Positions 14,054 through 40,023 of a stretch of DNA of 59,833 nt are shown piece after piece; within the stretch, counting starts at the first letter, position 1; each line of letters opens with the position of its first letter. The stretch spans positions 62,001 to 121,833 of the forward strand of contig KZ538131.1 of the NCBI GenBank assembly GCA_000934665.2, in the 5' to 3' direction. Both the position numbers and the translations under genes were made by a program. A model generated the notes under the pieces. That model had not been told where the DNA came from. It saw only the letters and a list, made by a program, of their open reading frames with translations, and did not search any database. The DNA comes from Catajapyx aquilonaris (lineage: Eukaryota).

Positions 14054-14056
<3 letters not shown>

Positions 14057-14114: not shown

Positions 14115-14120
<6 letters not shown>

Positions 14121-16309
14121 GGTAATGATGTCATGTTCCGGAGGGGGAATCCATAGGAGAAGTCATGCACTGGACACAATCCAAACACGTGCTTTGGCCG
14201 CAGTGTTGTTTAGGCAAGGAGCTTAATTACCTTCCATTAAAAGTTAAGCTTGGAATATTTTTGGGCACTAAAATTTCCCATTCCGTTACGTAAGCACAGA
14301 AGAGCCATCCTATATAAGCAGCCTGCAGTGTAAATCCGGGCAGGTAATCCTGGTTATAGGGTTTGAGACGCGCCGCATGTCGGAATCAAAATGTAGGACG
14401 TGTCATTGCCCCCGCCGTTTGCTCTGTCCAAAATACGCACTGCGTGCAGTATATATGCCAGATCACTATGGGATGCGCCTTAGGTCCACAGGACTGATCG
14501 ATATGTTTATGGCCAATAAGTCAGACAATGTTTATGGCGACTGATGACCGGGCATATTGAATGTAAATAAATATTGGGGGGGAAGGGGTCATGAGCTCGA
14601 AGGAGCGCTGATTCGATAACTTCCATGGGATGCATGTATATATGTGTGTGATTGTAAACTTCCGAGCGACCCAGTTGCGAAACGGGTCACGGCCACGGAG
14701 TACTGATAAACAAGTGCTGTACCGTCACTTGTTTCCTATTTGCGGTGTCTGCAAGCGATGACTTTCGCTGGTGGCAGCTCAAGAGAAACGGGACGTGCGC
14801 GTATAAAATTGATCGTTTCCAGCAGTGTCCTTCAGCCGGGTCACCACCGAGCTCTTGTTTGTTCAACCTGGTACCGGGTGAAGGGCAAAAGACGTACGCA
14901 AAATTGTAACGGTGAGGACGCAAAGCTGGAATTAAAAAAGGGGGTCAAGTTGCTCCCCTGACCTGCTCTAGGGCAAAGTCGAAGGAGCGGTATGGATTTT
15001 AAAAAGAAGTTGCGTATTGTCTCATACCTTGACCCGCTGTGGTATAGGTTGAGAATTGACGGACGCTTTATTTATAGTGCTGAGTTGCTGCAGTTTACAT
15101 CCTGTGCAAGTGCACATGCTTGCGGTTGTAAGCATTTAACATGCGTCGTAATTCGGGATGGTGTGAAGCAGGCTACGTTGCTGCCAAACGGCACCTTTCG
15201 AACGTGACTAGAGAAGGGCGAGTTGTGACCCGTGTCAGTAGTAGCCCTTGGATTCGATTCGGTCGGGCACTGAAAAGGCGAAGGAAAACTATAAACCCTG
15301 GCTCATATGCGCAGCGCCCACATTTCTATAAAGTTTCTAATATAAACCGTAGCTATGAACACGTGGAGATGGGGTAATTAATTAATCGTAAGTGTTTCTT
15401 TGGGGCATTAACGTTGCAGAATTTTGCAGTTGCGTCGTTTTTTTCTTCTTCTTGAACACGGTAGGAGACACGACAGCGTTTTCCTAGCTTGTATGTAACA
15501 AACACGACAAGGTCAGGACCACGGGGAACTCAAAGCTAGCCTGGAAGGTCCAAAGCTGGAGAGAAACAACAAAGAATAGAGTGGCCTTGGAAATGGTAGC
15601 CCGTACAAAGTTATTCAGAGGAAAGCGTGAAAGTGAAAATGCGTAGGACGGAATTCTGTGGAGTTGATGCATGAGACAGCGTGCGAAGCTGGAGAAAGTT
15701 ATTGTAAAGGGGTGAAAGCAGGTGTTTTTTGGGGAGGCTGCTGGAGTCAGGTGGTCGAAGTAGGACTGACTGATAAAATGCACGGCGTCGAACAGGTAGA
15801 GCTGATGACCTTCGAAAAGGGATTTGCTGGGCCCGATAGCCGCTGCCTATCAGATCAGTTTTCTAGAGAGATCAAGGGCAATGTGAAGTCACGAGATTTT
15901 TGCTGCACAGCTAGCTTGATTCGGTATGTCTCCTAGTCGTCTGCTGGCACGGTGCGTTGTTGACATGCGGTTAGTAATAATCATTTTCGCATATCGCTTT
16001 CTGCTGACGTGTCGTTGCGTTTAATTTGTTGGGTGCGTGTAGCTTCTGATTCTCGCACGTTAATTGGAGCGCTTTCTTTCTGGGAACTTTTCTGACATGA
16101 GATACGATATGTTTACACCCGTAAACTTCGAATCCCCCATCCCGCGAGACAGGTTTCTGCATTGCTTCCCTGCCAGACTGCCCTGAAGAAGGAGGGCAAG
16201 AATGCTGTCGTTCCCCCGCCACCCACCCACCACCCCTCTAATTCCCNCCCTGTTTTTGTTTCCCCTTTCTGTGCATACCCCCTGAAACAAGTGAGTAGTG
16301 GCAAACCTG

Positions 16310-16555
16310 AGGTTGCGATTGGCGAGCGCTGACCTAACCGTGACGTCACGCCGTACGCCCCACCTCTTCCACTCGCCTGGGCCAGCAGCTGTGTGTATGT
16401 GAGCGAGGGTGAGAGGGAAAGAGAGAGGGTGGGAGAGGGAGAGAGAGAGAGTGTGTGTGTGTGTGTGTGTAGGCGATGAATCAAGATAGCTAGGAGGTTT
16501 GGGTTAGGCAGCGTTTAGTCGTTGGGCAGCGTTGGAACAGTGCAGTCGACTCTCG
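16310..16555 (+). promoter_or_regulatory. Putative promoter of the distal alternative first exon of the TSC22/bunched-like gene
   Basis: Inverted CCAAT (GATTGG ~16317), CRE palindrome TGACGTCA 16341-16348, GAGA/GT repeats 16400-16470, directly upstream of a GC-rich exon ending in a canonical donor. Confidence 0.55.
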
Positions 16556-16633
16556 ATGTTCATCGCCATGTACATTCTGATCCCGTGGCTAGTACTGGTC
16601 GTGTACCTCTTCTTTGTGTTCCTGGACGTGTGA
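16556..16633 (+). CDS. Upstream ORF encoding a hydrophobic 25-aa peptide MFIAMYILIPWLVLVVYLFFVFLDV
   Basis: ATG 16556 with in-frame GCCATG 16568, TGA 16631-16633; G/C-rich third positions; lies in the predicted leader of the distal isoform. Translation not demonstrated. Confidence 0.4.
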   Translation: MFIAMYILIPWLVLVVYLFFVFLDV

Positions 16634-16698
16634 GGGAGAGCATGTCCCGTTCACGTGAATAGGCCAGCCAGCCAACCCAGACCTGGGCCAGTATTGAT

Positions 16699-16744
16699 CA
16701 GCAGCAGCGGCGGAGCAGCAGCAGCAGCAGCAGAGCAGCAGCAG
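16699..16744 (+). repeat. Imperfect (CAG)n tract in predicted 5' leader
   Basis: cagcagcagcggcggagcagcagcagc...; TAA at 16745-16747 is in the main frame, so it is not an N-terminal polyQ. Confidence 0.8.
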
Positions 16745-16873
16745 TAAGGGCCCGGGAATTGCAGACTTGTGGGTCAGGCAGGCTCAGCGACGGTGGCGAC
16801 CCAGGCCGTGCTCCGAGCGCCGGATGGCCTCCCGACGTTGAGGGGGCCAGTGGTGCTGGATAGTTGGGAGCGG

Positions 16874-17097
16874 ATGAGCTCGGGTTTGACGGACATCTTC
16901 GAGATGACCTCACCCCCCGACGGAGGTGGACAGAACCAAGGGACGGTGGTGGCGACGGCCGGAATGATCGGGGTCAGTGTCAACGTGGTACCACCGGCCT
17001 CGCCCCCCAACACGGTGCCCACGCTGAAGCACAAGCTGGACCTCAGCGACAATGCCACTTTGCTGGCGGTCTACTGCTTCATCAAGAATTTTATTGG
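16874..17097 (+). CDS. bun: TSC22/bunched-like protein, distal alternative first coding exon (MSSGLTDIFEMTSPP...YCFIKNFIG)
   Basis: GC-rich coding-like ORF ending ATT GG|GTGAGT (phase 2); joins exon 35300 as GG+C = Gly in frame with ASGTSTVAIDNKIEQAM. Confidence 0.75.
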
Positions 17098-20000
17098 GTG
17101 AGTCGAGCACGGGAAGAGGTTACGCAATGCGGTATGCCGACGGATGGTGACAGGTGAAACTTGAGGATGCCCAGACTAGACCGGATGGCGGTTTGATATT
17201 AATAGATGGGCTCATAGCGGGAGTATACCTCATACTTCTTACAGGTGGGGAGGGATTAGCAGGAAGCTTTGGACAAATCTGATAGCGTATTGGTGACCTT
17301 GCAAAAGTCTGGTCCACATGCTGGAGCAGATGTTTTGCCTGAAGCATTTGTTTTGCAAACCTGGCCCTGGTTGTCATGTGACAGGTAGGCCTACTAAGGC
17401 CTGCTTAAATTTGCAACCCTTTTTTTGTCGAGCCCGGGTGCATATAAAAGTGGGTGTGTTTGCTGATAAATTTATTGAGCCGTCAGTCCAGGTGTCAGCA
17501 GGCAGTTCTTCGGCCCTTATGAATGATACACGTGTAGCTGCTGTTCATAAGACGCATATCTGGAGTAATATAACAGTTTGCTGACATACGGGTCGGATCG
17601 CTCTGGGAGCAGCGAAAGTCATGTAGTGATAGGCGAGCGACAAATAGCGCCGGCATTATGCAGTGAATCGGAGCGCATTCAAGCTTGTTCTTTCCATTCA
17701 TAAAACGCGGCCAACATGGCCGTGGCCCGAGTCAAGGTGTGTTCACAAAGCTGGCGAGAAACCGAAGCTTTCGAGCGAATTTGTGACATTTTTAGCGTGA
17801 GTGTGAATGGGGTGCAAGCTTCTCGCTACTCGCGAGTTTGTGAACAGAGGAGGTGGTCAATACTGACAGAGTATGCGAATAATGTTTGCACCGTAGTGAT
17901 GGCGTAGTGGGTCTGGCAGGATCCTGCAGAATGTGCACGATGGTCTGCTGTGCAATATCCTTCTCCGGGATATCCTATATGTTGGGCTGCATAATTCCGG
18001 GTTGACCTTGAGGGTCGCATCTCAATTATGTAGCAGTCGGAGACGTTTTTGTTTCCTGACAACTAGTTTTTTCCCACGGTCGTTTTCAGTCATTCAGGGA
18101 GATAAAATATTGTCAGTGGTGTTGAAATTTGACGGGCTCTGCTCAAACGGCATTGGTAGTTTTCATTGACCAGAGGGGGTGATAGCAGCAATATGACGAA
18201 AATGTCGTTTTACCTTGACTGAATTTCTGGCAATGCCATGAAAGTTGTGAATGACGTGATGAGGAGTGTTATCTATCTATCGCAATGCGTGGGCGTCGGA
18301 AAGATAGGACACGAAAGTATCGATGAACTATTTTCAAACGCTCTTTTAGGCACATTTTTAACAACATGAAGCTCGATGGTGTTGTCCACACGACTGTATC
18401 AGTATAGGTTCACAGAGCCACTTGAGAAGCTCATATTATGTAAATGTGAGCTTATCAAGTGAAAAGTGTGAGCAGACCATAACCCTGTTGGGCATCCGGA
18501 TTGGAAATGCACGATGTACCCATTTCGGTCGAACTGATCATGACTAGTCTGCGAGCGGTTCAGGTACAGTTACTTCCATAAACGTGCCCCTGCACACACG
18601 AGGTATTTCGTCAGTCTTGGGGAGGACGTCACTGACTCTTTTCGGTGAAAACATGGACAGACCCCTGTCTTGGGATTGTTTATACCCGGAGGGTTCTAGG
18701 CAAGCATCGATTTTCCTACCGGTTCTTTCCGGTCGAGACCTTTTTCCTCATGAATAGGTAACCATAAGTCTGAGCGCCATTCTCAGGTACTGTGGGGATT
18801 CACGTTCACTGCACATCTGACGTCACCACTCGGACGACTTGTTGCACTTTATTTTTATTGATGCAGCAGCCAGTACCACGAGGTGGACTGGTGGTTAAAA
18901 ATCGTAGGCAGCCAAGAAGGTCGCGGGTTCGATCCTTGGAGAGTGTTCGAATTTACCTCGGGGGCAACAATTGTTGTATGAAGGATCCTGCTCATGGTAA
19001 TAAAGGACTCCGTTTTAGCCCCCATGTACCTATCTCAAAGCAGTGCTAATTTTGACCAGAGGTGACATCACGGCTCCTTTGTGTTGTTTGTACAGGTTCG
19101 CTCATAGTCCTGGCATGTTGAATTTGGAACGGATATGTCACTTATTATACCCCCCCCNCCCCCCCCCCCCGGGTTATATCTATTTTTTCCCCCCCTTCGC
19201 TCCGGTACGTACGTCCTTGCCCTCTTCGGTCGGAAATAGCTGGCGCTTTGAGGAAGGATTCCCCGCTCTTGGAAAATGTCAAACAATGTGGAGGGGTAAT
19301 TGGATCAAGGACGAAAAAAAAAAGAAGGCCCGAGTGACGTGCATGCATCAGGTGGAAGCCGTAATGTAATTGCGGTGTAAAAAAGAAGCACTTCTCCTCC
19401 ATCAGCGATGCCGGTTGTCCTTGACATTGAATGGTTCGGCGCAGCGTTTGAAAACATGCAGTTCCCGCGTGAGATCGCACAACCTATTGGTCGAAGTTGA
19501 CAGACCTCAGAAAGTGGCGAAACGGTGTTGCAGTGTTAGGGAAAATAAATTTGTATCTATAGGGGTAGCGGAGGGGGAAAAAAGTGGCGTTTAGGGACGC
19601 TTCAAGGTTATTAGTACGCAAGTCAAGCTTAATGGTCGGACGTACTTATGCAACGCGACTAGCTTGTTTGCGTTACGTGGCCAGCACTGGTGGAGATAAA
19701 GTGCTGGGGTTCAAGTCCAGTACATGGGTGTCGTATTCAAAATATGTTGGTAAGTTCTTTGGTCAGGGGGGTTGTGGAATGTTCGGAATGAAAAATATTA
19801 TTGATAATATCAGGTTGAATTGGGGTGTATTATTTCAAGCCTGGGGCTCACTTCTATACTATAGGCGTTAAGGGTTGATGAACCCTCCAGCACAATACAA
19901 GGATCAGAATTCGGTATGTTATTATCAGTAACATATTTGCTACCGCTGGATGTAGGCCATGCAGGAGACAATGAGCAAGTTGGAATGCTGGAATTTTTCT

Positions 20001-23000
20001 GGTGTGACGTTTGATAAGAAATACGACTCGCGTCTTGTGGTAAAAACAACTTGTGGACTTTTGAAAATGTGGGTTCGGTGTATTGGGGGCGTGAGGCACA
20101 TGGGACATTTGGTTTTCCGAGCGGATATCACTTGTATAGCATTCAATATTGTACCGGCTGTATTACCCGAAATTCCATCGCGTTCTTGGACGCAGATATT
20201 GGCCGTAGAAACATCAGAGATAGGCGTTGTTGTTCGTGATTGGCGATGTATATGGCGTCAATGAACATGCCCCATGGGGTTAAGAGTTATCTCGCATGTG
20301 AGAGCCAACTCGCGTGTACCGCGATTATTTTCCAGACGGGCTCATCCAACGATGGCATCCACTCCGCACGGAGGTGCTCCAGTGACAAGGAAGAGTTGGT
20401 AAATCGTGACGTCAACAGGTGCAGTTTTCTCGCCACTTCCGAGAGAGGTCAGAGAGGGGGAAAAAAACAAAAAACTTGAGCTGTGGAACCGAATGGGCCC
20501 AAATTAATTCTACGGGAAGTCCCCGAAGAGCGTGGCCATGTATAAGGTACGGCTGATAAGGAATGGTGTTGGATGATAGCGGCATGACGTGTGATCTCAT
20601 GTTGACATATAAAACTCGTGCCGCGATAAAAGGCGACTCCCGTGTTGGAGCACGTGGCGGTGAAATACTCGGTTTCACGTAGCATGTACGGCTCATGCGG
20701 AACAGCAGTTTCACATTTCTGTTTGTTTTCATTTTTTGGGGGGTAAGAAACTGGAGTGCGCCACACCTCTTTTGCATGCGAGGGGGTGACGTATTGCCGG
20801 CAGATGCTGCTTTTCTTCCTGTTCCGTATGAGCTCGTGCTTTCGAATTTTTGCTGGGGTGTTAGCAAGCACTATCACCATGATTTTGGAGTTGTTTTAGT
20901 GATGACCTAGTTACCAGGGAGCTGCCAGCACCGCCCTTTTGGTATTGATTTTTGGGGAGGATAAAACGAAAACAGTTTTTTTTTGTGCTGCCGATTTCCA
21001 CGCAGCAGATTTTGGTCACGTGATACCGCGGCACCTTGACTGCAATTGGATTAATTAGCGTCGTTCTTCCACACCCTATGCGAAATTCATATTTGACCCC
21101 AAAATGTCCCGGGCAGGTTATAGAGGGTAGGAGGTGGGGGAATACCAGGCGTGGCTGAAAATGACGTGCCAAGTGGCAATTATCTACGAGCTTCTTCCCC
21201 GCGACCCACTTTTTTATATACGAAAAATGTGAAAGGGGCTATTATTGCGATCTGGAGTCTATTATAAGTCCATTCCGCCGCCGCGCACCTGTCAACGCAG
21301 CAAAGGTATCCAAGTAGGACACAATGCTCCAGTATTAAATTTTGGTGCGAGAGAGCAGAAATGCGGGCGAATCACAGTTCAAGGTTTTCTATTTCTGTGG
21401 GGGGTATATAGGCTTTTTTTTATATATAAAAAAAAGAGTTGGAAAAGAGGCACGTGAGAATGGTGGCCAGATAAGGCGAAGGAAGACGGTATTGTTAGGC
21501 TCGCGAACTGGTTCACCCTCGTGTAGATGAAGGCGATGCGTTTTCGGAAGATATTTTAAAGCTGGGGCACAATGATCCAGATGTTGCAAATTCTGGCAAA
21601 TTTGCAAGGTCGTGGCCCAATAATAATTTTTCGGCGGGCCGAGGAACCTTGGTTTTTAGCAACAATGCGGCCGAGGAGATGCCGGGCTGGAGCCGTAAAG
21701 TGTTTGGTCACATACCACATCACTTTGTTTCCCGCCAGAGCAATTGGGGGTGCTCGTTTATAGGACCGGTTGTATCAACCGGGCCTACAAAATCAGCAGC
21801 ACGTTTTATCGTAAAATGAGGGATCCAGTGATATGCAAAGAATGCGTGAAATATGGCGACTTCTATTGTGCTGATTTTAAGTGCAGTGTTAAAATTTGTA
21901 GCGCAGGGCAGGGAATTTTTTTTCAGACCCCCATGTCACCTGGTAACCCAGTCTGTGCCAGCGGAAGCAACTTTAGCGGGGGGGGGGGGGGGGGNNNNNN
22001 NNNNNNNNNNNNNNNNNNNNNNNNNNNNNNNNNNNNNNNNNNNNNNNNNNNNNNNNNNNNNNNNNNNNNNNNNNNNNNNNNNNNNNNNNNNNNNNNNNNN
22101 NNNNNNNNNNNNNNNNNNNNNNNNNNNNNNNNNNNNNNNNNNNNNNNNNNNNNNNNNNNNNNNNNNNNNNNNNNNNNNNNNNNNNNNNNNNNNNNNNNNN
22201 NNNNNNNNNNNNNNNNNNNNNNNNNNNNNNNNNNNNNNNNNNNNNNNNNNNNNNNNNNNNNNNNNNNNNNNNNNNNNNNNNNNNNNNNNNNNNNNNNNNN
22301 NNNNNNNNNNCCCCCCTTTCTGGCCTTGGTGCTAATTCAAGGCCGGAAGGAGCCCCCGTCTCTTTGGCCCTCTTCCACGCCGCTTTTGGGAGCCGCCATC
22401 TTTACCTACGTGACCTCTACATGGAATGCAGCCGTATTGCACATTCCGGCCCGCAGAAGGGCAGCCCGGACTCTCTCCGGGTGATTGTTGACATGGGCCA
22501 CGTGTGTCCTGTGCCACCAGGGGTTAGGGCCGTAACCATAAATTTGGAGGGCTAAGGGATTCTTGGCTGGGATAAACTGCCCTGTTGACGTCGCTGGTTG
22601 GCCCATAGGAAGAGAGAGAGAGGGGGGGGGAGGGGGGGGGGAAAAAAAAGAGACATTGGCTAAGCACCCAAGGAGCCTCCGTGTTATACACCACATGTAA
22701 TGTGGAGGATCTGTCATCTAGTAGCTACCCACACATGCGGCGCTTCGGAGGGCTCCAGTGCGCTTGGAGGTGTTATTGGGAGAACATGTTGGATTTTTGG
22801 TTAGTGAGGACGGCCGTATAGCGAAATGGTACACAAAGTCGGGGTCATGGAGGAGAGCAAGAAGCGTCTCAACTGTAGGCTCTACCGGGTGATGAGGTAA
22901 TGCATGTGCAGGTTTTGCTCCGTTGCATGGGTTTGCAGCTGAACATACTGGGCGCCAATGTCATATTGAATAGCTAATAGCGGTGGGCTTCCGAGCTTCA

Positions 23001-26000
23001 TTTTGAGTGGACTGCTTCGAATCGACTCGTGCTTTCTGACATGTGGACAAGCCTTGTCCCCCCATACTTCCAATCAATTATAACGTGCAATGAATAATTC
23101 CAGGGTCCTTTCCTCCGGGTCGTTTTCCTGTAAAAGTCGATGTCCCTAACGTCTTTCGCAACGATCCATCCGTCATCTCGCATGCCGACATCGGCCATAA
23201 TAAGGTTGTAAAAGGAACACTTTGGTGGGGTCACACACCCGGGCCATTCCAGGAGCCACAAGGTCGTTATCTCCCATATTTATTTGTGGTTCGGAGGACC
23301 TTTTTGACGTCATTCACGCCTTCCCTCAAGGTGCGGCCGAACAACACCGTTTTGTCGCCGTTTAAATTGTAACCGAGGCCGCTGGCTGACTCGTATGTCC
23401 GATGATGCAGCATGTGACGTATGGCGCGACATTGGGCTTTTGGGTAAAACCGAACTGAAGGCTGGCATTATTTGTGTCTGACCAGTGCAACTGCTGATCG
23501 GGTGACAAGGACAAGGTCGGATTTGGCAGGATAGTGAAAGCGTCCAATGATAACTGATGGTGTGGTAAAGCCCGGTTTCCACTGGAGCTAAGTAGCTGTT
23601 TACTTGTTTTCCGCTGGTAACATATTCAAGGTGTTGCTGCTGAATTGTCTATGTAAGAGCAGTATCTCTGAACTGGAATACACAGTGGCTGCAGCCACGT
23701 TCAGTAATGGGTCGGTTATTCGTCCTACTGCTACAGGTAGCAAAGGTTACTTGTCAAAAACTAATGACCATGGTAACCCTCTAGAAGGCTGATATAGGAG
23801 AATTGTGCACTGTACAGCCAGGAGTACTCTGGTAGCAATGACTTAGTAGAAGGACGAAAAATCGACCCAATGAAGCTTACAATTAAAGCTAGTGACGTCA
23901 GTAACCAAGTTCCTTCAGCAGGGGAGCTACAGTTCGTGAAATTCTGGCAATAAGGAACTTATTAGCAGCAAATATTAGGTGGAATAGGGCTTGACCACTC
24001 GCGCATTCAGGTATACACTGTAATCACGAGAGGTTGCAATGCTTACCTATATGGAAAGTGATTATGCGTAATTACGAGTTATCGTAATCAGGTGTAAACT
24101 TGAAGAGGAGCAGCTGATCTTAGTGGTTGAAGGTTGGACGCGAGACTTTGAATCTTACGAGTTCAAGGGTTGGACCCCCCGTTGCAGTGGTAAACAAGGA
24201 TGCTTCCATTCAACCTCACATATAGGCAGTGAATATATTCGTTAATAGATACAAGTAACAGCTTACTTAACAGCAGCTTTGTGCCAACATTTCGCCAGCT
24301 ACGACCGACAGTGCCTGTATTATGAAACTGACTATATGGTTGGTGGCTATCACCTACCTTTGAGTCAGCTGGTTTTGGGCCCACTATGAACCTGCATGCA
24401 TTTCTGGGTCCCCTTATCCACGTGAATCCCATCTTCATTTCAGGCCCACTTACTCATATGGGGGTGTTCTGGAACACCCTGTTATGTACAGTAAAGTACA
24501 GCCTTCAACCATAGTTTTGATCGAATGAAATGGAATGCTTTTCTGGAGCTGGCGATCACATTTTCGGCCGTTATCTCCTGCGTATTGCATTTAACGAGAA
24601 TTGATGAGAGGAAAAGGGGTGACGTCTGGGGGAAAGGGAGGCGCAGTTTTGGTCCAATTCATCTAGTGTCCCGTAATATTGGCTGGAGCAGTATGACGTA
24701 AGTTGGGACGTCACGTGCTCGGGATTTACTCTCCGGGTCTTCTTTAATGGATCGATACGTTTACGCATGCACAGTGCAATACCAGCAGTTCAAGTAGGGG
24801 AAAGGGGCAAAAGAAAAAAAAAGATAAGTCATTTGAAGATCACAGGGGCGATCTACCTTTTTTTTTTTTTAAAAAAAGCCCTGATTTGCATAATGCAAGG
24901 CGGGTGTTTGAAAAGCTATTTGAGCATCCCGGATTGATTCATTAGCACAAAGAGTATATGGGTCAGGGTTACGGGGTGTGGGTATACACACATGGCGGAT
25001 TGCAATTATGTGCTGTGGGGGTGCGCGTGAATGAATGTGTACCGGTGTGATGTCAGCGGGGTGATATAGGTTAGGCGGCCCTCAAGAGATATGAGAAAGC
25101 ACCTGATTTTGTGTTCAGGTGTTGAGAGTTGGAAGGCATCACGCGCGTAATGACGTTATTTGGGCGAGAAATATGTGTATGTTTTTCGTCGTGGGGACGG
25201 TTTAAAATTGGATGGTTTTTTTGGGTGGGGATCTGAGCACATACGTCGGATGTCGTACATTTTTTTTTTCGAGTATAGGTTCGCGCCGGATGTGATTACT
25301 GCGGAATTGGCGTCAGGCCACCGTGCTTATTTTTAAAGGGCGGTTATGGTAATTAATTGGTTCGACTCGGTCTGATTGGGCTGGCACCTGCGCCAGTGGG
25401 TGAATCGCACCACATTTTTTTTGTATTGTATAGCTTCAGGATTTATGTTTGCGACTGTTTCCTCTCAAGTAAATGCGACAAGCATGTTAGGCACTAAGTA
25501 ATGGATGGGGATAATTACGGTAGCTTGGTTAGAATTATGTGACTACCTGGGGGAAATCCTAATTGTCTCGTTAAAATTATTATTAGTAGCCGAAGTTACT
25601 TGATTCAAACCCCCCAAAACTGAGTATTTTTGCCTGGAGAAAAAATACGACATTTTGCTTGGGGGGAGTTGTACCTCATAGTGTGGCGTACCAGAGTGAT
25701 GTTCGTAAATAGCTAAATGAAATGCACGCGAATATTCTTCATAATATAATTATAGAAGATCAACACTTCTTAGCATGTCAGTATCGTACGCTGGAGCAAT
25801 TAGGAGGCATTCGCGTCGTCGCTTAGGCCAATTTTGTAATTTTTACTGAGAAACAGCATGTATTGTGTATTTTGTTAGAAAAGAGGGTATGGTGTCAGCC
25901 TGTACTATGCTATCAGCCTCTATAGCACTCGCAATACCTGGAAACCACCTGCACCCCATGTCCTATACGTGGGCCAGAGCCTTGTCACCAAGTACACCTA

Positions 26001-27417
26001 CCCAGGACTAAGTGGTCGTAGGCTGTCGTTGAACTCTGGCACGAAGGCATCTATAAAAAGCAAAAGGTCATGCTAATAATTAATCCCATAAAGAACAATA
26101 GGCCAATGAGTGTCGCAGTCATCAATAAAAGTCGTGCACTCGACATAATGACGCGCGACTTCCGACCCCGTGGTCACCTTCATCACTTGTGAGAGGAAAT
26201 GATATTGCTGAGGCACATCGGATAGGCAAAGATGATAGGAGCTAAGAGAAAGGAGCCTGCTGGGGGTGCTTTTCTGTGCCTCCACACTTTGCCCCCTTCC
26301 TGGCCCTCCCTTCCACCCCGGGCTCCCCAACCTCCTTAGTAATGGCACGCATGCGCAGGGACTAACCTTTTATGATCAAGTCTGCCAGAGACGCGTCAGT
26401 GTTCCGTGGGCACCAACCTTTGTGCTGCCGAAATCTTCGAAAAAGCAAAACGGGGGACGGTATGGGTCCTTGATAGGGACCCGGAGCCCCTCCTGGCGTG
26501 TGCTGGGTCAGCCAAAGAGGGGTAGGTCAAGGGTCACGGTGCATGATTGCGAGAGAGGCATGCTATAATTTTCTGACATACGCACCTGCTAGAAGTATAG
26601 TTTGGTAGGTTATGAGGGTTGGTATGTACTGTATGTAAGCGCGGACATTTTGTCATATTTATATTTATTTATATATTAGGAGGAGTCGTGCACAAAATGT
26701 CCGAGTAGTAGGCGTCCAGGCAAGAACGGGACCTGGGCAACATGCCAGGGAATGTAGGTCCTGCCAGGGAAATTATTGATTCTCCTAGCCAAGCCGGCCC
26801 TAAGTCGGTCTGCCACTAAACCGGATAGTTCTGGTAGCTTTGCGGAACATTGTCCCCCCCCCCCNCCCTACTACCCCCGCACTAGTCGTTTAGAGTTGGC
26901 TGTCAGTGTTATGGTTATTGCCGTGTGACATAACAGTTGGCGGCGTGAAGGGAACGGAATATTTGTGTATGTTACACCTGTTCGTGGGTAACTGTTTTGT
27001 TGGTTCATATTAATCTTACGGGTTGTCTACCTCGCGGTAGAGTTCAAATGGCACATTGAAACATGGGACAATTGTTGTGATTAGGAACTGGTCCGTGTTG
27101 ACATATTGGTGTAGCTTGCCTATAGCTAGTCGTGTCGATCAGCATTGTTTTCGTACTTCCGTTTGGTGCGATAGAAATACTCGGAAAGTTATGCGTCGGC
27201 ATCGGAATACCGCAAATGATATGTTTCTCCTGTTATGATGTATTCGAGCTTGAAATAGCACTGACGTCACACGACTTAATTGTTAGCTACAGCGTTCATG
27301 TCGTTGAGTCATTGTTGCTCATTGTCATGTCAATATTCTGATACTTGTGTATTACACTTGTCCGTTTTATATACTGAAGGTGTATGTGTATGTATGTATA
27401 TGTAATCCTGCACGTTT

Positions 27418-27510
27418 TTAACGCCAAGTCTCTCTCTTTGTAGGTAAGTGTCGAAACATGATTGACAACAATGCCTGGCCATGGGTTGCTAACCAGAAGG
27501 TCACGTGAGT
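27418..27510 (+). other. Candidate recursive splice site (AG|GT at 27443/27444) with 61-nt cryptic RS-exon 27444-27504
   Basis: TTAAC branch-like 27418-27422, tctctctctttgTAG followed by the perfect donor GTAAGT; downstream donor CAC|GTGAGT at 27504/27505. Confidence 0.6.
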
Positions 27511-30500
27511 GTGTGAGAATGCATGTGGATTGAGTGTACGCTGCTGTCTCGAGTAAGCCAAAGTAGTAGACCATAATTATCAGCAAAGCGAGAAAAAAAA
27601 ACCCCCCGTTGCATCACTCTTGTATTGGTAACAAGAAGGTTAAAAATCGCAATGAGCCTCTTCTACGTCACGCAGGTCGTACCACCCGCGACCGACCAAT
27701 TGTAGAGAACCTTTCAGGGGTCAGCGTCACCGGGTAATCAATTCTTTCTGTGAAAGGCGGGCTCTGTAGTGCTTGGGACGGCCGCAAGGAAAATACATAC
27801 CGGATCGGTTTGGTGCAGGTTCATTACACCGAAACTAACAGGTCCGATACTGTAAAAGGGCGAACCGCGGGCGACCAAACTAATGCAAAGCTCCGATTTG
27901 GCCAATTGGCGACAGGTGAGCGTGGGCGATACTAATTCTCGGAGGCGCTTCGCCAGTTAGTGGCTAGGTGGCAGGAGCGGGCCAAAACACCCTGCTGCGA
28001 TTCTGCCGTAGGGTGGCGCCTAGCGGCAGCGGCTGGAACTTGGTGGTTTCAGGCTCGCGAATGGTGGCGCCAACCAGCGACCGCCTGCGGAATTACTAGT
28101 GGCTCAAGGACGGACCATTTTAATTTGAACAATAAATTGAGCTTAAATATTTAAATGGCAGGATGAATTCAATTTGAATGCAGTTGACGACGTCAAGACG
28201 TCATTTCCTATCCGTCCAGACTAGATGCTGATTGAGTACGGTGCTCTGCCATGCCAGAAGGACATTGTATCCTGACATGTTTGCAACCTTGTCGCCTGCT
28301 CTGCTCCACAGGTCGTGTGTGAATAGGCGTGCGTGTTGAATATGTATTGCGGATGGGTTGCACACACCCCCGATTTGGTAGTATTATGGGCGGCTTCAGT
28401 GGAGGAGCGTGTGCGTCGTACGTCAGTATGTCACCGTGTAAATTGAAGCCTTATTAAAGGAACTTGGAAGCGAGCCATGGAGGTTCAAGGCTGACGGATT
28501 CGAGTTTCACGACCGGAGGACCGTGCGGAGAGAGGGAGATCTTGTGTTGTTGTTTATTGCTGTCATAGTTTTTTCTCCCCCACTCGATGGAATATCAGCA
28601 AATTCCTAACTGGCGGGGGGTGATGTAATCGCAAAGTGACCTTGGTCCACTTGCAAATGAGGAGTGAAGGTGAATTGGGTTGACCAGTTGCTCACCACGG
28701 ACGTAGTATCATTTGTGGAAAACTGATGGATCGGTTTAAATTTCGAACGTAAACCAGGTCACGGTGCGCATTAATGACGAGTATACGGGCCTATACCGCG
28801 ATGATGCCAGACGCAGAGCACTTTGAGGAGATTGCGAATCACGTGAGACTCCGATTATCTTCCGGCGCAAGTTATGTTCCTTTTCATGCTTAGCTATTCT
28901 CAAGCTTAGACTCATGGCCATATTTGGAGACATTTATGAGATTAGCCTCGTACAAAGAACAGATACGTAACAATTTTATCCGATTGCGGGGCGGACATTG
29001 CCGGGGTGCAGAGAAACGCAGTTGGTCAAAAGAATGGAATTTTTCTGCCTGACATCGCTGCTGATTCTCCAGAATCGTTGCAAAAGTCGCCTACAAGAAT
29101 CAAGTGAAATACAGAGCAGGGTTGCAGATAGTATGTGGTCAAATATAAGAGCGTAGGAAGGGTTAATTTGTTTGCGTTTCTGAATGGAAAATTTGCAAAA
29201 CAACTTAGGGTGCTCATTTTACATACACATAAGCCAGCCTGAAGATGTGGAGCGAGAGATAAAGGAAATAGAACGCGCCGGAAACTATTATTTGGGAAAT
29301 GTGGGGATCATTATTTCGTAATGCTCGAATCATATAATTTTACACGCTTTAGGCGTACTGTATGACGTTCTTTTCTGCATGTATTTAAAAATCGATACCT
29401 ACAGCATGCACTTGTTTAATAATGCAACTCGCGAGAGAGAAGACGGGCCAAGCTTAACAGGTGGCCGTCTACCCCCCACCCCGCCATGTGTTACTATGAG
29501 AGATGTGGTGGGTGACAAGCTACAAATATTATAGCATATATGCTGCATGTCATAGCAATCGGGACAATTATTCCGTGAACAATTTAAAATAATTTGCATA
29601 TAGATGTTATCCGTGTGATAGTTTTGAGGGCCCAGAATTTCCCCCAGTTAGATGTATCACGCCGACAACCTTGCCCTACTTAAAAGAATTACATGGCAAG
29701 AGATGAAGAAAGTGTAGAACATTGTGCGTAACACAATTGACGCGATTAAATATCTCTCGCACGATTTTTGAGGAATCCAGAGCTTATTACGCGAGCATGC
29801 TGCAAGTGGAAAAAGAAGGAAAAGTCGAATTATTTCGCATTTAAAAAAACGATTGGTCAGTGAAGGTACCGATCGTTTGGGGTGCAGCATATATATAGGC
29901 TACGTCTTCATGGGTACATGGAGTAAGATTGATAAAAAAAAAATCAATTAGTTAGACAAGCTTAAAATTAGGTCCAATCCATATATATCATGTGCCCTTT
30001 TTAAGCCGAATTGCCCGATAATAATGGCGTCCACAACTTTTGATTAAAACATAATGGACAACGAAGATCAGGTCCTTATAATCCAACAAGTCATATCGTC
30101 CACTTGTCAACCGTCCCCTGGGCCGGTAGAGGATGAGTCCATTTGTGAATTACGTTATGGGTTATGCGATTCGTGTCTGGAGTCACGTACAGTATAGACA
30201 TGCTGTATATAGTCACGCTTTCCCGGCTGGTAAATGTGTCTGGGTATTGTCTGTTTTTTCCGGCTCGAGTACAGCACCTTGCATTATTTCATGACAGACA
30301 TGGCCGTAAGCCTATTCAGTTTGTAATATCTCTGTTAGCAATATGATATCCCACTAGACAAGTTCTGAAACTGTAGACTGACCAGTGGGCGGCGGTCTTA
30401 TCATGAATTTAAAAAAAGATTTATTTGACCTTGACTGGACAATGACAATGTGCTTCTGTGGAGGGGCCAATGAAGTTATCTTTTGCCTTCCTCAAAGTGC

Positions 30501-33339
30501 ATCGCGGTCGAAAGAGTTCGAGAGCCATTGTGCACTGTCAGACCAATATTCACGAGTTAAAAACGAACCCAATCTTGAAGGACTTACACACGTGTGCCCG
30601 TTAATGTTGGGAGAAACCGGGCCCAAACTATGTAAATCACAGCATATTTGGAGTGAAATGAAAATGAAAGTGGCATCAATTACAAGCAAAGATTATCTTC
30701 GGATGTATATTGACTGCACATGACGCAAATTAAATCTTCCTGCAAAAAATAAATAAATAATCGTACATTTCGTAGCATATTTTTTGATTTACTGATGACT
30801 GAAAGCGTGACATTGAATTCTATTCCTGATCAGGTAAATATGTCGTGCAACAAATAGAGGACGTTTTTTGAATAAATTGTTCTTCCCAAAGTGCGTCACC
30901 GAAACTGCGGATTCTATCGGGCTCGTACCTGGGACGTGTGGTACTAAGGGCATACGTGCCTATTACGGAGGAAAACAACAACTTACAAACATGAGATTCT
31001 CGTTCCAGACGCCTGACTTGTATATAGGATTGGCAGATGGCGACCCCACATTATGGAAATCATCTTTCCTTCTAAGAAAAATGACGCCATTGAATCCACA
31101 ACATTTCTGATACGCACCCGAAAACAGAATTAGAAAATCCATCTTGTTTTTGACAGTTGGCACGGTTGGGCAAAGTACAGCACGTTAGTAGCACACATGT
31201 CATAAAAAGGTGCGAAACGGCCTGAGAAGTGCTGAACTGGCATGAAGGGGTCAGTGAATCTGTAACCTGCAGATCAGTATGCTGAATACGATGCCAGTGG
31301 CTTAGAAATATATCAGTCGAAGCTTCCATTTTTCAATTTGGGTTCACATTGCCGTGACGCCAAACCGATTATCCGGTGTAGTGTTGGGGGGGAAAACGGC
31401 TTCGTACTCTCCGCATTTTTGTCAGCGCTGTACCAAGTCTCTTGTCTTTTACATATCTTTTGTTGGGGGTGCTGGTATCCACCATCAGCATTGACGTGCA
31501 TTCGTGCTCATTTAGTCGCACTTGGGTGCCGGCCAGACATTGACACCTGCGTATCGGCGAATCCTTAGCACGAGATTACCTTGTCGAGATGTACACACGC
31601 CGTGTGAAATAAGTCTTCGTATCTGCGGCGCCTGACATCCTAGGAATTTATAGCGGCTCGGAGTTAACTCATAGTTATAATAATAATAAAAATGCGCGAT
31701 TGTTGATAGAGCGTAATGGCACCGCCTGATGACGTAGCGGCCGCGATGTTTCCTTCAACAACTCCCAAGATGGCCATGGTTCTGCCTCGGCCCCAGAGAT
31801 CTTCCGGGTGACACAAGGTCGCACCCAGGGACTTTTCCGGTCGAGAAGGTTCTTTTTGTTTTAACAGCGCACGCGTGAACCCGACTTAATGAGCGACCAC
31901 CTGTAACATTGGCGGGGGGCTTGATTGCACGTAATGTAGTCATCAAGACGCGGAAATTATAATAATGACGTTAACAGTATTAGTGCGCTTTAGGTGAGAC
32001 TGCTTTCAGACGTGATTTGCATTGAATGGGCAATGTGCGTGATAATGGCGGATTATATATAATTTTTTTAAAAAACCGCATCGTGTATGTGAACTCATTA
32101 GATGGAGGTGTTACATTAATCCGCGACAAGGGAGATGACACGGTTGACCTCAGCGAGGCCAATTGCTGTATCAGCCCCAACGGTTATGATCTGGCTCAGT
32201 TTCCAGACATTGCAATCAGCGGACTCTGAACCAGTATTGTTTAGTAAAAGCGGGTTTTAAAATTTTAATCGGGGCAAAAGTGACACACTGACTCACTTTT
32301 TTTTTTTGAACGTTGGTCTTGAGTAAACTGGGCGGATTGGTGAATCACCGTATCGGTGACCTTGGTTATTCATTTTTAATGATGGATTTTTGCGACACTG
32401 AAGATGTGGCATTGAAATCCCAGAGATGAAAGCCGGCGGTATTTGATGAAGTCGTTACGTTTCCTGTTTGCTCATTAGCACACAAAGGGGTGACATGCAT
32501 GATGGGGCAGGATTGCGGAGGGATTCGGTTCGAAAATGGAGCCCAATTAGCAACGTTGTTTGGGAGATTGGATGATTTTTTTTTTAAAAAAACTAATTAG
32601 CAGGAGGCTTTTGAAATGGGGTGAAGGCGGAGAAACTAATAACGTACAGAGAGGGCCTCCTCGTATTTTTAGTGCTCGGCCCTTGAGACAAATGTGGATG
32701 AGCTCGGAGACACTTCTTGGGAGCCGAAGAGGTGCTTTGAAGGGGGTACCTGTCGCGAACTTTCGGAGATGTGCTGTTGACTACCTTGTTTGTGTAGGGT
32801 GAACAACAATGATTTCACAACAAGTGTGTGCCTGATGTCGTTGCGAAAGCTGGTTTGGAAATATTCTAGGTTATATACTGTATTTATTTTTTTCACTCTG
32901 CGGTTGAATGTATTTACGGCATTGATTTCCGTTTGATAACGTGCTCGATATACTTCTGGGACACACGTGCTTGGTCGCTCTTCCTTCAAGCATTCCGGAA
33001 AAGTTTCCACTTTCTGAGCCCCCCTCTTGCCTGTCACTGAAAAGAAATGCAACAATGCCAATGATCTCTCTTCTAAGTAAACGAGGTTCACGTTTCCCCT
33101 TTAGCAGCCAGTTCTTTAACCCTGAAGAACCCCTCCCCCCTACTGTAAATTGCCAAGTTTTGTAGCCTGCATTCCGCCATTGGAGTTGACGAGTGAGCGT
33201 AGTGACCTCGGCAGGTTGGAAATGATTCCAAGAGTTGAGGGGGTGGGAGGGGAAAAAGAGACCCAAGGACTGGCAGTTCGCGTAGGTACTTGTAACGTGT
33301 ACGGTGTACGGCGTGTAGTGCTGTGTGCAACGCGCGCAG

Positions 33340-33460
33340 AATGGGTCACGTGGGGTTGTGACGTCAGGGAGGAGCGCAGATAGGATGGGGGAGGGCCATG
33401 TGGTCTCAGTGCAGTCGGTGGCAGCAGGTAGAATCGGAGTCAGTCACTTCCGTTACGTGT
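33340..33460 (+). promoter_or_regulatory. Putative promoter of the proximal alternative first exon
   Basis: E-box GTCACGTG ~33345, CRE TGACGTCA 33359-33366, Inr-like TCAGTC ~33440, CpG-rich. Confidence 0.55.
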
Positions 33461-33664
33461 GAGGACAGTGTTTGGAGTGACCGGTGGCCTCCAGTCGGCA
33501 ACATTGGCTTGAGGCGCATAGACCGTCTTGGGAGATGAATGTCCGTGCAGTTACAAGGCTAGTCACGTGGTGCTCCTAGAGGAGCGCCTTCGCCGGTGAA
33601 GACGGCGTCCTTACCAGTTGTGATTCCGGCCGGTACCGTCGTGGGCTATCAGGGCGGCCAGACT

Positions 33665-33942
33665 ATGTTAGTGATGGTTATGCCGATGCCGATGCCCATG
33701 CCCATGCTGATCCCGATGCCAATGGTGACTCTGCCGGCAGCGGTACCGGCAGCGGTACCAGTTCCCGCCCCCGCTCCAGTGATTAGGCAGAATAGTGCTC
33801 CCAGTGGTTGTCCAGCTAGGCCTGGACCCATTCCGATCATCACGGTCAGCGATCATCAGGACCGTGGTACCGACATGGTGCAGATGTACCGCCAGTATTA
33901 CCGTCCACCGCCCAGGCTGCGCTTACAGAGGGTTCAGTCCTA
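33665..33942 (+). CDS. bun: TSC22/bunched-like protein, proximal alternative first coding exon (Met/Pro-rich N-terminus)
   Basis: ORF MLVMVMPMPMP...RLRLQRVQS ends TCC TA|GTAAGT (phase 2); TA+C = Tyr in frame with shared exon 35300. The frame is open upstream to GTG 33596. Confidence 0.7.
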
Positions 33943-34992
33943 GTAAGTAGCGGATCCAGCTGTCAGAAGTCGGTGCCAGTTTTAATCCTGGAAGTGATAT
34001 AGTGAAGGGCATCAATCGCCGATAGCCTCAATATAGGAAATAGCAGTTTTTTTTCATGGAAAAACAGCGCCAAACTGATAGGGTGTTATACAATACGACA
34101 TCGGTGTGCCAAAATCTTTCGCGGAATTTTTCACTCGTTTCGGGGTTGATCCGGGGGGGTGAATATCTGGGCGGGTGAGTGGGTTATCTCCCGGCTGATA
34201 GTCAAAAAAGTTGACGGGTCGTGGCACTTTTGCGATAAACGGGCAGTGCACATCGGGTATTGTGTTGTGGAAGGATTGGCCCGACGCAGCAAGCCTTGAA
34301 CCCCAGTTAATTTTATCGCCTCGTGTTACTTGGAGGATGGCGGGAAGAGTCGGGTTCTGCGAGTGTCATACTGCTCGGGTTGACAGATAATGGAGTCAAC
34401 CTGAGACGGCAATTTCTCAGCGTGGGAATTTTGCCCTAGAATCGTTTGGGCGATCAGGATCGGGCCGGATAATTTGCGAGACAAGCTCCCCCTCCTCCTT
34501 CCATTGAGCAGATATGAAAACAGGAGACGTGCATTTGCGTAAGCGGGGCATAATGGGGCGAAAAAGTGCACATTCCGTTGCCTAATCGTGGATGACGGCC
34601 CAGGATATTCGATTCATTAGCAGGGTGACGCACGGAGCCTCTTAACTGGACGAGCACAAGTAGGAGGAGGGGGTACGTCGTCACATGTCGCCTGTCGCAT
34701 CCCCATCCTCCGTTCTCGGTACATGGTGAACGAGAGGACAATACAAACTAGGGAGGTTACGGGTCCTAAGTCTGCGGTGAGGACATGACCAGCGTCACTT
34801 CCTGCAATCTGTTCTGGATGAGGGGTTTTTAGGCGGGTAAATAGCGCACCTGACGTACACGTGGTGGGAATAGGTTTTCCACATTTGCGTCGGGGGAGTT
34901 TAAAGGGATGAGCCGGGGCATGAACTGGAAACGTGATATGCTGTAATTATCTCGCAATTAAGCTGGGCTAACGAGCCGGTTGTAAAAAAAAA

Positions 34993-35023
<31 letters not shown>

Positions 35024-35299
35024 TGCGAGGAACGTCAGCGGCAGGACCGAAATCGGCGGGTCGGGTGAACCAGGAAAAGCGATCAGTCGCGGCATCGGCG
35101 GATTGGGAAACCTGGTGACCTTGCCGGGAGGCACCTTGGATGCAAATGATCTTCCTGAACCTACTACCACCCACCGCACCTGGCTTACCCCCGACAAGCG
35201 GCTGGATATTGAATGTGCTTATGATGTGAATAAGGCTGGTTGGCTACACTGTCAATAAACAGTATCTGAATTGTCATTTTTTTCTCTCTCTCTTTTCAG

Positions 35300-35351
35300 C
35301 GCTTCCGGCACCAGCACCGTGGCGATAGACAACAAGATAGAGCAAGCAATG
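35300..35351 (+). CDS. bun: TSC22/bunched-like protein, shared exon (ASGTSTVAIDNKIEQAM)
   Basis: Acceptor tttctctctctcttttcAG, donor ATG|GTAAGT; the peptide is the hallmark VAIDNKIEQAM start of the TSC box. Confidence 0.95.
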
Positions 35352-37043
35352 GTAAGTTTCTGGGTTTGGCAAGGTCGTAGTTTGGCTCGTAGGCGGCGCT
35401 GCCATCTGTCGGCGGCAGTGTTTGACTCGGGCTGGCGGCAGATTCGAAGCTGGGACCAACCTTGAGTCGGTTTTTTAAAAATATTAAAGCTGCGATGTGT
35501 GATCCGGATTAGCAGGCGGGGGCAATCAGGGGTTAAGTGGATGCGATGTCGCATGACCGGCCGGGTTTGCGACGTAATGGCAGACGAATTGGATTTGCAT
35601 AAATGCGGCAGGTGGCTGGCGGGGGGTATTATGTTTAGACTTGGGTCGAAGGGCCTGGGTGACCTGGACTTTGAGGGTTTGGTGGCGGGTCATTTCGACG
35701 CGGGGGCTTTGCAGGCCCGGGGATTGGTGATGTAACTAATGTCAGGAAGCGGGTGAGGGGGCCTGTGTGTGGGGGGGAGGGAGGAGGACGTGTAGCAATC
35801 GTTCAAGGGCAAGGTTGCAGTTGATATTGTGAATATGAGCAATTTCCGCGGAGGTTTTTTTGCTGGGCATTTCTTTTAAAAAGTCGGGAGGGGTATTAAT
35901 AGTGTGGACTAGTGACCTAGATCGTGTCCCAGGAGAAGTGGATGGTTAAAGCGCATGCGGGTAGGCGAGAGAGGAAAGGGAATGTAAAGGGGGGGTTTAA
36001 AAAGGGGGTGGTTGATAGGGTTTGTGTAGAGCGGAGGTAGGCATAAGTGCAGGGAGTACCCGTGAGAATAGGAGGGTGGGGGTGCTGAGTGCATGTCCCC
36101 AGCAGGGGTGTACGGCTGCAGGCGGGATGTTGAGGCAACGGTCTGGAGAAGAAGAAGAAAGGCCAAGGGCCAGGAGGTTTTCGTATTCGGCCCTTTACGA
36201 GGTGCGGAGGAGAGGTCAGAGGGATGTGTGCTACGTCTTGATTCCGGATGAGCAAGTAAGGGTTGGCTCTGGGGCCAAATTGTTGTCGAGGGTCGGAACT
36301 CCTGGCATAGTTGATATTACGGTTGCGCTGAACATTGTTGCTATGTGCAGAGTGCAGCACGTCAAGTGCCAAGTTTTTGTACTTGTACAGGAAGCCACAG
36401 TGGGGACAGATAAAAGGAATGAGGTTGGACACACACAGGTTGTTATCTTACACAGTACGTCCAGTGTGTTACATGGTTCTAAGGGAATAAGTTTTTAAAA
36501 ATTTGAAGCACGGTGCCAACTGCTTGGTTTTTTGCCTTCCCAATCAAAAATGCGACAACAATGTCGATTGATAGTGATGGGAAATGTGATATGCCAAAGG
36601 GAGGGAAGAGCAACTTGCTTCCAACTGGGGATTTTAATAAGTGTGAACTTAACTCCTTAATAGCAGAATCGCCCTGTAATTTCATCAAAAATATTGTGAT
36701 TTTTTTACTGAACAAGTTTTGGTAATATGCAACATATTAGAAAATCCTGCATCAGTCCATAATGAACCCTATAATAGGCAAGTTTCACTGTATTATTTAT
36801 GGGAAAGGATGATTGACAGCAGCTCCTAGTCACATGGTGGAAGTGAATTCCACAGGTAGCTGGATAGTCCAGAAGCAAGAACTGCTGTTGGTAACTGTTG
36901 CCTTTAGTTGTGCATACCTACGCAGGAATATGAAAACAGGGATGCAAGGGAAGAAAACTGCGTGAAATGTGGCATTTTGCCTGCAGTTGTGCCTGGTAAT
37001 AAAATTATGGTACATGGTAACATGTAATTTTATCTTTCACCAG

Positions 37044-37256
37044 GATCTGGTGAAGAGTCATCTGATGTTTGCAGTCCGTGAAGAGGTGGAGGTCCTGAAA
37101 GAAAAGATATCTGAGCTAATGGACAGGATCAACCAACTTGAGTACGAGAATGGCATCTTGAAGGCAAATGCCACTCAAGAAACTCTGGCCCAGCTGACCC
37201 AGCCCCCACCCAAGAACCAGCAGCCTCCAGGTGGACCGCCATCGTCCGTGTCCTAA
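37044..37256 (+). CDS. bun: TSC22/bunched-like protein, terminal exon (TSC box + leucine zipper)
   Basis: Acceptor atctttcac[43 protein letters not shown] is the canonical TSC22 domain; stop TAA ends at 37256. Confidence 0.96.
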
Positions 37257-38955: not shown

Positions 38956-40023
38956 GCTTTAGAGACCGTCCGTCCGCCTCCAAAAGCTGTCTGACTGGCT
39001 TGAAAATACGTGCTAATATATATGAATATATAATGCTGCGTCGCTATATATTTATATAATATTGCTTTTTCTTTTAACTTGCCGGTTGCCGCCCTAGGCC
39101 ACGGCCTCGTGTGACCTCACGGCTAATCCGCCACTGGCTGTAATACTAACTAACGTTGAAACTAAGAGTTGAAAAATTGACTGGACAGTGTGTACAGCAG
39201 GGTTGCTTCCCATTTGATTACGTGATGTGACCGCCTGCTCCCGCTAGCCGAACATGTGCATGTGCATAAATTTTTTTAAGGTTTGGCAGTTATTCCTGCC
39301 AACTGGCATTTTTGCCTGTCCCATAGGTTTTTCACAATGGCTTAGGCTCATTTTTTATTGACTGCACCTTATACATGAGGATGTACTCCAGTTAACATTT
39401 GCAGTAGAGCCAAGCCATCATCAGTTTTCAAATCAGTTGATTGGAGCATTGCAACACTTAATGCTGCAAACTTTTCACCCAACCTGGTAATGACAGTGAG
39501 TGGACTAACAGACAGGAGAAACTGTCATACAAATGAAGGGTGTTGTGGAAAAAGGTGATACTCATTTTTGACCTGAACACCTAGCAGCAATGTAAAAGAC
39601 ATGACAAACAGTATGGTATACTCCAAGTTCACGTATCATGCACGAGACAGCCACACGGACTAGATCAAAACCCACATTCCCCATGATTTGTTACGAGAAT
39701 GCAAACTTAAATTCGCTCTCCTGAAAAATTACACTTTTGTGGGTGTTATCACCTTTGTCCACCACACCCCTCAAATGAAACTCACAAGTAAGTCTAAATT
39801 TGATGGTAGCAAGCCAGGATTTGTCTTCACTACTATGTAAGCAAGTGCAAGGTCAAATATTTCCTTTGGATGATCTCAAAACTGGTTTTTTGTACCTACA
39901 AGTTAGTGGGGGGGATTTCTCCTGTATGCTCATGACATATAACCAGGGTGGTGCCTTAAAGTTTAAAATAGCACATCTGTGCTACATCCTCCTAATTCCT
40001 GGCATACTCCTCATTTTACTGAC

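Follow-up and report, generated by a model that had tools for sequence, protein, structure and literature searches.

A candidate Drosophila-type recursive splice site within a long (18.2-kb) intron of a TSC22/bunched orthologue

The window examined here, by which we mean the whole analysed stretch of 59,833 nt, carries on its + strand a TSC22/bunched-like gene (Pfam PF01166 TSC22, E 5.8e-28, 97.3 bits against a cut-off of 30). Convergent with this gene on the - strand are several exons of COG3, the conserved oligomeric Golgi complex subunit 3, at 40014-48203, one of which (44045-44671) matches COG3_C PF20671 with 181 bits and has its protein relatives in the COG3/COG6 families. The TSC22-like gene runs from alternative 5' exons into a common 52-nt exon at 35300-35351 (+), which encodes (G/Y)ASGTSTVAIDNKIEQAM and is delimited by the sequence together with contig joints. 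The last exon follows, its coding part at 37044-37256 (+) holding the TSC-box and leucine zipper of PF01166 and closing with the stop TAA at 37254-37256. The 5' exon that we call exon 1 lies at 16527-17097 (+); a contig of run X1 covers 16527-17096, and the upstream limit of the exon is the end of that contig only. Its coding sequence, MSSGLTDIF...FIKNFIG, ends in phase 2 (..ATT GG) and is followed by its own donor, GTGAGT, at 17098. The exon-1 peptide found no relatives among 103 candidates.

X1 is the sole public run containing exon 1; its kind is not on record, and it consists of contigs that behave like transcripts. The intron at 17098-35299 (+), 18,202 nt long and holding the candidate site described below, can be taken as real because a transcript-like contig joins 17097 straight to 35300 (joint 17096/17097 to 35299/35300, GT..AG ends, depth 33.6). 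This is also the dominant assembled form among the X1 contigs, with exon 1 spliced directly to exon 2 at 35300 and the cryptic exon that we call the RS-exon skipped. Five X1 contig records were placed on 16300-35700; none covers 27444-27504, and they are uninformative on the use of the site itself. Two short matches of contig record 2, of 18 and 19 nt (29469-29487 and 35276-35293), were regarded as spurious.

Exon 1 is one of three different upstream exons that X1 contigs join to 35300, which bears out the alternative promoters, or 5' exons, supposed in the original prediction for this locus. Another is an alternative first exon at 33650-33942 (+), inside the 18.2-kb intron and 3' of the candidate recursive site, which is joined from 33942 to 35300 with 1,357 nt skipped and GT..AG ends; it too is in phase 2, and its donor is GTAAGT. 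The open reading frame of this exon encodes a Met-Pro repeat (MVMPMPMPMPMLIPMPM) and an Ala/Val/Pro-rich peptide, with no Pfam match. In the third case a contig (record 4) joins 35298-35328 to an AT-rich upstream exon ending ..GAAG, for which a 24-nt probe, with one mismatch allowed, had no match in the window; this exon is either outside the window or in an N run. It is therefore probable that the TSC22-like gene begins 5' of the window, in which case positions 1-16500 would be intron for the third isoform.

Within the 18.2-kb intron, the + strand at 27418-27510 reads tttTTAACgccaag-TCTCTCTCTTT-GTAG|GTAAGTgtcg...ggtCAC|GTGAGTg. A branch-point-like TTAAC at 27418-27422 (+) places its A (27421) 22 nt 5' of the AG, where it could serve in lariat formation. 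It is followed by a putative recursive 3' splice site at 27429-27443 (+), composed of an 11-nt pyrimidine run (27429-27439) and then GTAG, with TT at -5/-6 (27438-27439) and the AG at 27442-27443. The acceptor at 27443 reads Y-tract-TTTGTAG|GTAAGT, of which TAG|GTAAGT spans 27441-27449, and the GTAAGT at 27444-27449 (+) would be the regenerated 5' splice site, or ratchet-point donor. Directly after the AG begins a cryptic RS-exon of 61 nt (27444-27504, +), which is out of frame and would present a stop as the second codon after exon 1. It is bounded by the RS-exon donor CAC|GTGAGT at 27505-27510 (+), with its GT at 27505, which is weaker than the ratchet-point donor by the U1 proxy described below. 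With 10,346 nt of the 18,202-nt intron before it and 7,856 nt after it, the site lies at 0.57 of intron length; single recursive sites in flies tend toward the intron midpoint.

A second candidate recursive site with the layout seen at 27444 is found at 1519-1608 (+). Here CTAAT (1519-1523) precedes a 21-nt pyrimidine (CT) run at 1526-1546, again with TT at -5/-6, and the core consists of AG at 1547-1548 followed by GTAAGA at 1549-1554. The RS-exon is 54 nt long (1549-1602) and ends at a donor ACG|GTGAGT, whose GTGAGT occupies 1603-1608. For this site to be intronic, a distal exon would have to lie 5' of the window. The two candidates are both in sense orientation within one gene, and they align solely over TCTCTCTCTTT..AGGTAAG; no repeat family was found for either within the window, where their matches were to microsatellites only. 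A further tract at 6465 (+), TTGCAG|GTAGTG, was considered and not counted: it has a tract and the TT, but a poor donor half and no downstream donor, and it could be the acceptor of an unannotated exon or a chance occurrence. The original prediction had rested on the TTAAC, the tract with its perfect GTAAGT donor and the CAC|GTGAGT 61 nt 3', as well as on a site of like architecture at 1548 on the sense strand, and the letters agree with it in every one of these respects. Its division of intron 17098-35299 into about 10.3 and 7.9 kb is likewise confirmed by the contig joint, and its reading of inclusion as GG+G and then TAA is correct, exon 1 in phase 2 (...ATT GG) giving GGG TAA.

How unusual such an arrangement is can be judged from the accessory features that the fly literature attaches to these sites, namely TT at -5/-6, a prominent pyrimidine tract and an RS-exon of ~50 nt with a downstream donor. 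We combined them into a composite, defined as TT at -5/-6, a Y-run of >=10 and GTRAGT at +30 to +100, of which the numerical thresholds were fixed after the sites had been seen; the 27444 finding had itself been singled out by eye in a large scan. The window's two strands together contain 16 AG|GTRAG sites (12 on +, 4 on -); two of them, 1549 and 27444, carry the composite, and each of the remaining 14 lacks all three features. When the search is widened to all 478 AG|GT sites (261 on +, 217 on -), the same two are again the only ones with the composite (2/478). At arbitrary positions of the + strand, the TT occurs at 8.3%, the Y-run at 3.7% and the downstream donor at 2.7%, and all three are found together at 14 of 59,673 positions on + but at 1 of 59,673 on - (15/119,346). 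This gives an expectation of 0.002 composite sites against the 2 observed (Poisson P about 2e-6), and the estimate is conservative because the microsatellites of the window were kept in the base rates.

The pyrimidine tract by itself is cheap in this sequence, because each strand of the window has CT/AG microsatellites. Stretches of (AG)n/(CT)n type lie, for instance, at 14057-14118 and at 16403-16479, the latter just 5' of exon 1, where it interrupted the contig alignment; on the sense strand, CT-rich tracts coincide with the real acceptor at 35299 as well as with both recursive candidates. When the sense strand (1-37300) was shuffled 1000 times with its dinucleotides preserved, one TT plus Y-run site arose in 3 shuffles, the full composite arose in none (0/1000), and none likewise held two such sites. 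An outside background was taken from 80 metagenome TSC22 loci, 35 of them with the AIDNKIEQAM exon, in many cases as cDNA-like joins; these come from distant animals and reach at most ~5.2 kb upstream of the common exon (<7.9 kb), and they serve as background only. Across 356,878 bp of these TSC22 loci of other animals, TT with a Y-run of even >=8 was found at 0 of 40 AG|GTRAG sites on both strands. An Rfam search over the window returned 0 matches. Overall, it is not plausible that one gene has two composite sites in its sense strand by accident.

Ratchet points of the Drosophila type are characteristic of the longest introns in a genome, which they cut into segments of kilobases, and show strong conservation of their acceptor|donor core. 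The layout at 27444 is that of the fly ratchet point, a tandem acceptor|donor accompanied by a short cryptic RS-exon of ~50 nt, of which more than 500 intronic examples are reported (PMC8605326; Joseph & Lai 2021). According to that account, the fly RS-exon is recognised via its downstream donor and is then always skipped, as the regenerated donor out-competes it, and fly RS-exons show little conservation and as a rule do not keep the frame (PMC8605326). The likeness extends to the juxtaposed acceptor and donor, the downstream donor and the out-of-frame RS-exon at 27444, and the RS-exon lengths of 61 and 54 nt here compare with those of Ubx-RP (53 nt) and chinmo (56 nt) among the cryptic RS-exons described for Ubx, kuz, Bx and chinmo (PMC8605326). 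TT at -5/-6 is given for 196 of 197 fly ratchet points, and fly recursive segments are given as 2,596-63,580 nt (Duff preprint), a range that includes the 10,346 and 7,856 nt at this locus. The fly mechanism was established by mutagenesis and RT-PCR (PMC8605326), whereas at 27444 it is suggested by sequence layout and a pairing proxy. On balance we consider it likely that the gene, a TSC22/bunched orthologue, has at 27443|27444 in its 18.2-kb intron a zero-nucleotide recursive splice site, in other words an intronic ratchet point of the Drosophila type.

If the site works as in flies, its strong acceptor, made up of the branch-like TTAAC, the CT-rich tract and TTTGTAG, would be recognised by exon definition together with the GTGAGT 61 nt 3'. 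Exon 1 would then be spliced to 27444 and the first 10.3 kb would leave as a lariat, the junction rebuilding a donor ..TGG|GTAAGT. This rebuilt donor would out-compete CAC|GTGAGT, and the 61-nt RS-exon would depart with the remaining 7.9 kb as the junction is re-spliced to 35300, leaving no trace of the recursive step in the mRNA. The 1549 site may have a like role for transcripts that start upstream of the window. The exon definition, the first-step lariat and the re-splicing at 27444 are steps that we infer from the fly model, and actual use of the site is predicted in the same way. Stepwise removal of the intron, as the original prediction had it, is a putative mechanism favoured by the anatomy of the site, the confirmed intron and the precedent of fly bunched.

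Donor competition was approached through the pairing (duplex) of each donor with the 5' end of U1, a crude proxy rather than a trained model. The rebuilt donor TTGG|GTAAGTGT, formed by exon 1 and 27444, scores -12.2 kcal/mol by this proxy, the RS-exon donor at 27505, TCAC|GTGAGTGT, scores -7.7 kcal/mol and exon 1's own donor -10.4. Because the rebuilt donor is the stronger (-12.2 vs -7.7), the fly model, in which a stronger ratchet-point donor predicts skipping (PMC8605326), leads us to predict constitutive skipping of the 27444 RS-exon, insofar as the crude U1 proxy is a guide. The X1 contig in which exon 2 directly follows exon 1 agrees with this. The third isoform, with its exon end ..GAAG, would rebuild an even better donor, AAG|GTAAGT. 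At 1549, GTAAGA scores -4.3 by itself and -11.3 in a CCAG context, and the RS-exon donor there scores -9.4; the margin is smaller, is not clearly in favour of the ratchet point, and depends on an upstream exon outside the window.

The identity of the host gene provides a further line of argument. In Drosophila, five high-confidence recursive sites, documented by junction reads, are listed for bunched (bun, FBgn0259176, an identifier given as bunched in two tables of PMC11272079), all of them in two long introns that lie next to each other (Pai et al. 2018, PMC6110457, S1/S5 tables). Four of these lie in a 59.1-kb intron, which they cut into segments of 16,098, 13,505, 11,001, 10,810 and 7,694 nt, and the fifth divides the adjacent 18.9-kb intron into 8,697 and 10,194 nt (PMC6110457). 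The tables give 93, 85, 46 and 4 junction reads across labelling times for the site in the 18.9-kb intron, and they flag this site, as they do some bun sites generally, as present also in Duff et al. 2015 (PMC6110457). Both genes belong to the TSC22/dip/bun family and both have long introns upstream of the common TSC-box exons. Since fly bun is recursively spliced upstream of its TSC-box exons, the prior for the 27444 site is raised.

The fly bun segments of 7.7-16.1 kb listed in these tables are of the same order as the 7.9 and 10.3 kb here. The bun sites there read ..CTTCTCTTTGCAG|GTAAGC and ..TTTTCCTTTGCAG|GTGAGT beside ..TCTCTCTTTGTAG|GTAAGT at this locus, a likeness of motif that means little alone because any two ratchet points resemble each other. 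More specific is the exon between the two fly bun introns, which by coordinate arithmetic on the listed positions is 51 or 52 nt long, depending on convention, and compares with the 52-nt common exon here. Since the adjoining exons thus match in size (51/52 vs 52 nt), the long intron of the window may correspond to the 59.1-kb bun intron of the fly. For the homologous TSC22 exon of other animals, 5 of 19 loci show a length of 52 nt, and many of the rest apparently one of 46 nt. The ..AIDNKIEQAM exon keeps its donor position across distant animals, with the 52-nt form in L006, L016, L056, L066 and L072 and apparently 46 nt among L032-L070, where the AG lies 6 nt further in.

There are also differences between the two loci. 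The fly sites are listed with junction-read, read-pair and saw-tooth support, whereas the site here is known from sequence. The host is, moreover, distant from the fly: the 209-aa COG3 exon shows only 52-58% identity to its best matches among 560 database relatives (amphioxus, katydid, spiders, sea spider, fishes and molluscs), and Drosophila is absent among the COG3 matches listed, the best 120 of the 560.

It has to be asked whether the same layout could have another cause. The segment 27444-27504, and likewise 1549-1602, might be an expressed RS-exon or poison cassette, included according to tissue or promoter isoform, so that inclusion brings in a stop and NMD lowers the output of the gene, in line with the vertebrate RS-exon model; we regard this as unlikely. 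The acceptor and downstream donor do define a plausible exon at 27444-27504, yet this 61-nt segment is skipped in the assembled X1 transcript, and no inclusion isoform was found among the X1 contigs that join across the 27444 site. Expressed RS-exons are on record in flies, where they number fewer than 50 (PMC8605326), but the rebuilt donor at 27444 is clearly stronger than its competitor, a relation that is reported to predict full skipping in flies (PMC8605326). Inclusion after a phase-2 exon would lead immediately to TAA, and the TSC22-like gene has at least three alternative 5' exons. The stop is, however, no sign of design, as it comes of itself wherever GTAAGT is read in phase 2: once any phase-2 exon has been joined as G|GTAAGT, the next codon is TAA, and phase 2 is found in all the 5' exons read here (exon 1 and 33650-33942). 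In vertebrates, as Sibley et al. are said to have described in 2015, RS-exons are coupled to quality control. The present locus resembles those RS-exons in the premature stop on inclusion and in a host gene with alternative 5' exons, and differs from them in a motif and tract that are fly-like and in an RS-exon that is skipped in the assembled transcript. The original prediction had gone on to propose that NMD-coupled RS-exons act as quality control between the promoters, and this part of it is left unsupported, given that the TAA is automatic, that the RS-exon is skipped in the contig and that the donor proxy predicts skipping. Such a reading is somewhat more plausible at 1549 than at 27444, and at 1549 the RS-exon donor is about equal to the ratchet-point donor by the U1 proxy.

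It is quite improbable, in our judgement, that at 27444 a CT microsatellite happens by chance to abut AGGTAAGT, with no function, in an intron removed in one step. CT/AG microsatellites on both strands and a motif picked by eye out of a large scan would make such a coincidence easier, but where 0.002 composite sites are expected in the window there are two, both on the sense strand of one gene, and the composite appeared in 0/1000 shuffles. The downstream donor also stands at the right distance in both sites, against a base rate of 2.7% per position, and the fly orthologue of the gene is recursively spliced. Alternatively, the GTAAGT at 27444 could be the donor of an unannotated alternative first exon ending at 27443, and so mark another internal promoter like that of 33650-33942. 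Several 5' exons of this gene all splice to 35300, and the donor at 27444 is perfect; even so, we hold this to be highly improbable. The phase-2 frame 5' of 27443 runs into TAA at 27403-27405 with no ATG between, a first exon would leave unexplained both the pyrimidine tract and AG ahead of the donor and the second donor 61 nt 3', and the upstream exon of the third isoform is not in the window.

Taken as a ratchet point, then, 27444 is a good candidate for a known mechanism and not a new mechanism. To our knowledge, genome-wide catalogues of zero-nucleotide recursive splicing exist essentially for Drosophila alone, with a handful of vertebrate genes in addition. The only case of an invertebrate recursive site outside Drosophila found in our literature search, which was not exhaustive, is NPF1 of the migratory locust. 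There, a motif-predicted recursive site in a 230-kb intron is reported with U2AF65 RIP support (PMC8892266). The locust site as reported is like ours in lying outside Drosophila and the vertebrates, in having been called from the fly motif and in its upstream branch point; it is unlike ours in that it belongs to another gene and was backed by U2AF65 RIP (PMC8892266), whereas the present site is backed by statistics and the precedent of an orthologue. What the present locus offers, on sequence evidence that is strong, is two fly-style ratchet-point candidates in the orthologue of a recursively spliced fly gene, in a clearly non-drosophilid animal. It bears on the questions of how widespread zero-nucleotide recursive splicing is in other animals and how old its sites are.

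One possible answer is that recursion in bunched/TSC22 is ancestral, with ratchet points upstream of the 52-nt common exon kept since the common ancestor of Drosophila and the host. We think this rather unlikely for now, although the last segment is of similar length in the two (7.9 kb here vs 7.7 kb in fly bun). The same non-exhaustive literature search turned up no ratchet point reported to be conserved outside the drosophilids. If true, ancestral recursion would represent the deepest conservation known for a zero-nucleotide recursive site, and would argue that the sites are needed for the multi-promoter architecture of the gene. Should the sites be confirmed in RNA, the locus would allow us to ask whether recursive sites are inherited together with a long-intron, multi-promoter architecture or are re-invented, and whether the fly rule of donor competition and RS-exon skipping holds elsewhere.

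The remainder of the window holds several minor features. Runs of N occur at 21995-22310 (316) and 48969-49090 (122), with six single Ns scattered in addition; in the + strand translation a G run precedes and a C run follows each of the N runs, which looks like an assembly or masking artefact. On the - strand, open frames at 51783-52635 and ~58664-58996 look by eye like degraded remnants of mariner/Tc1-type transposases, and the only match of these transposase-like frames was to HTH_32, weak at E 0.007 and short of the Pfam cut-off. An inverted repeat close to the 3' end of COG3, at 40739-41026, has 118-nt arms that are 92% complementary around a 52-nt spacer, and is MITE- or hairpin-like in form; each of its arms contains AG|GTAAGG.
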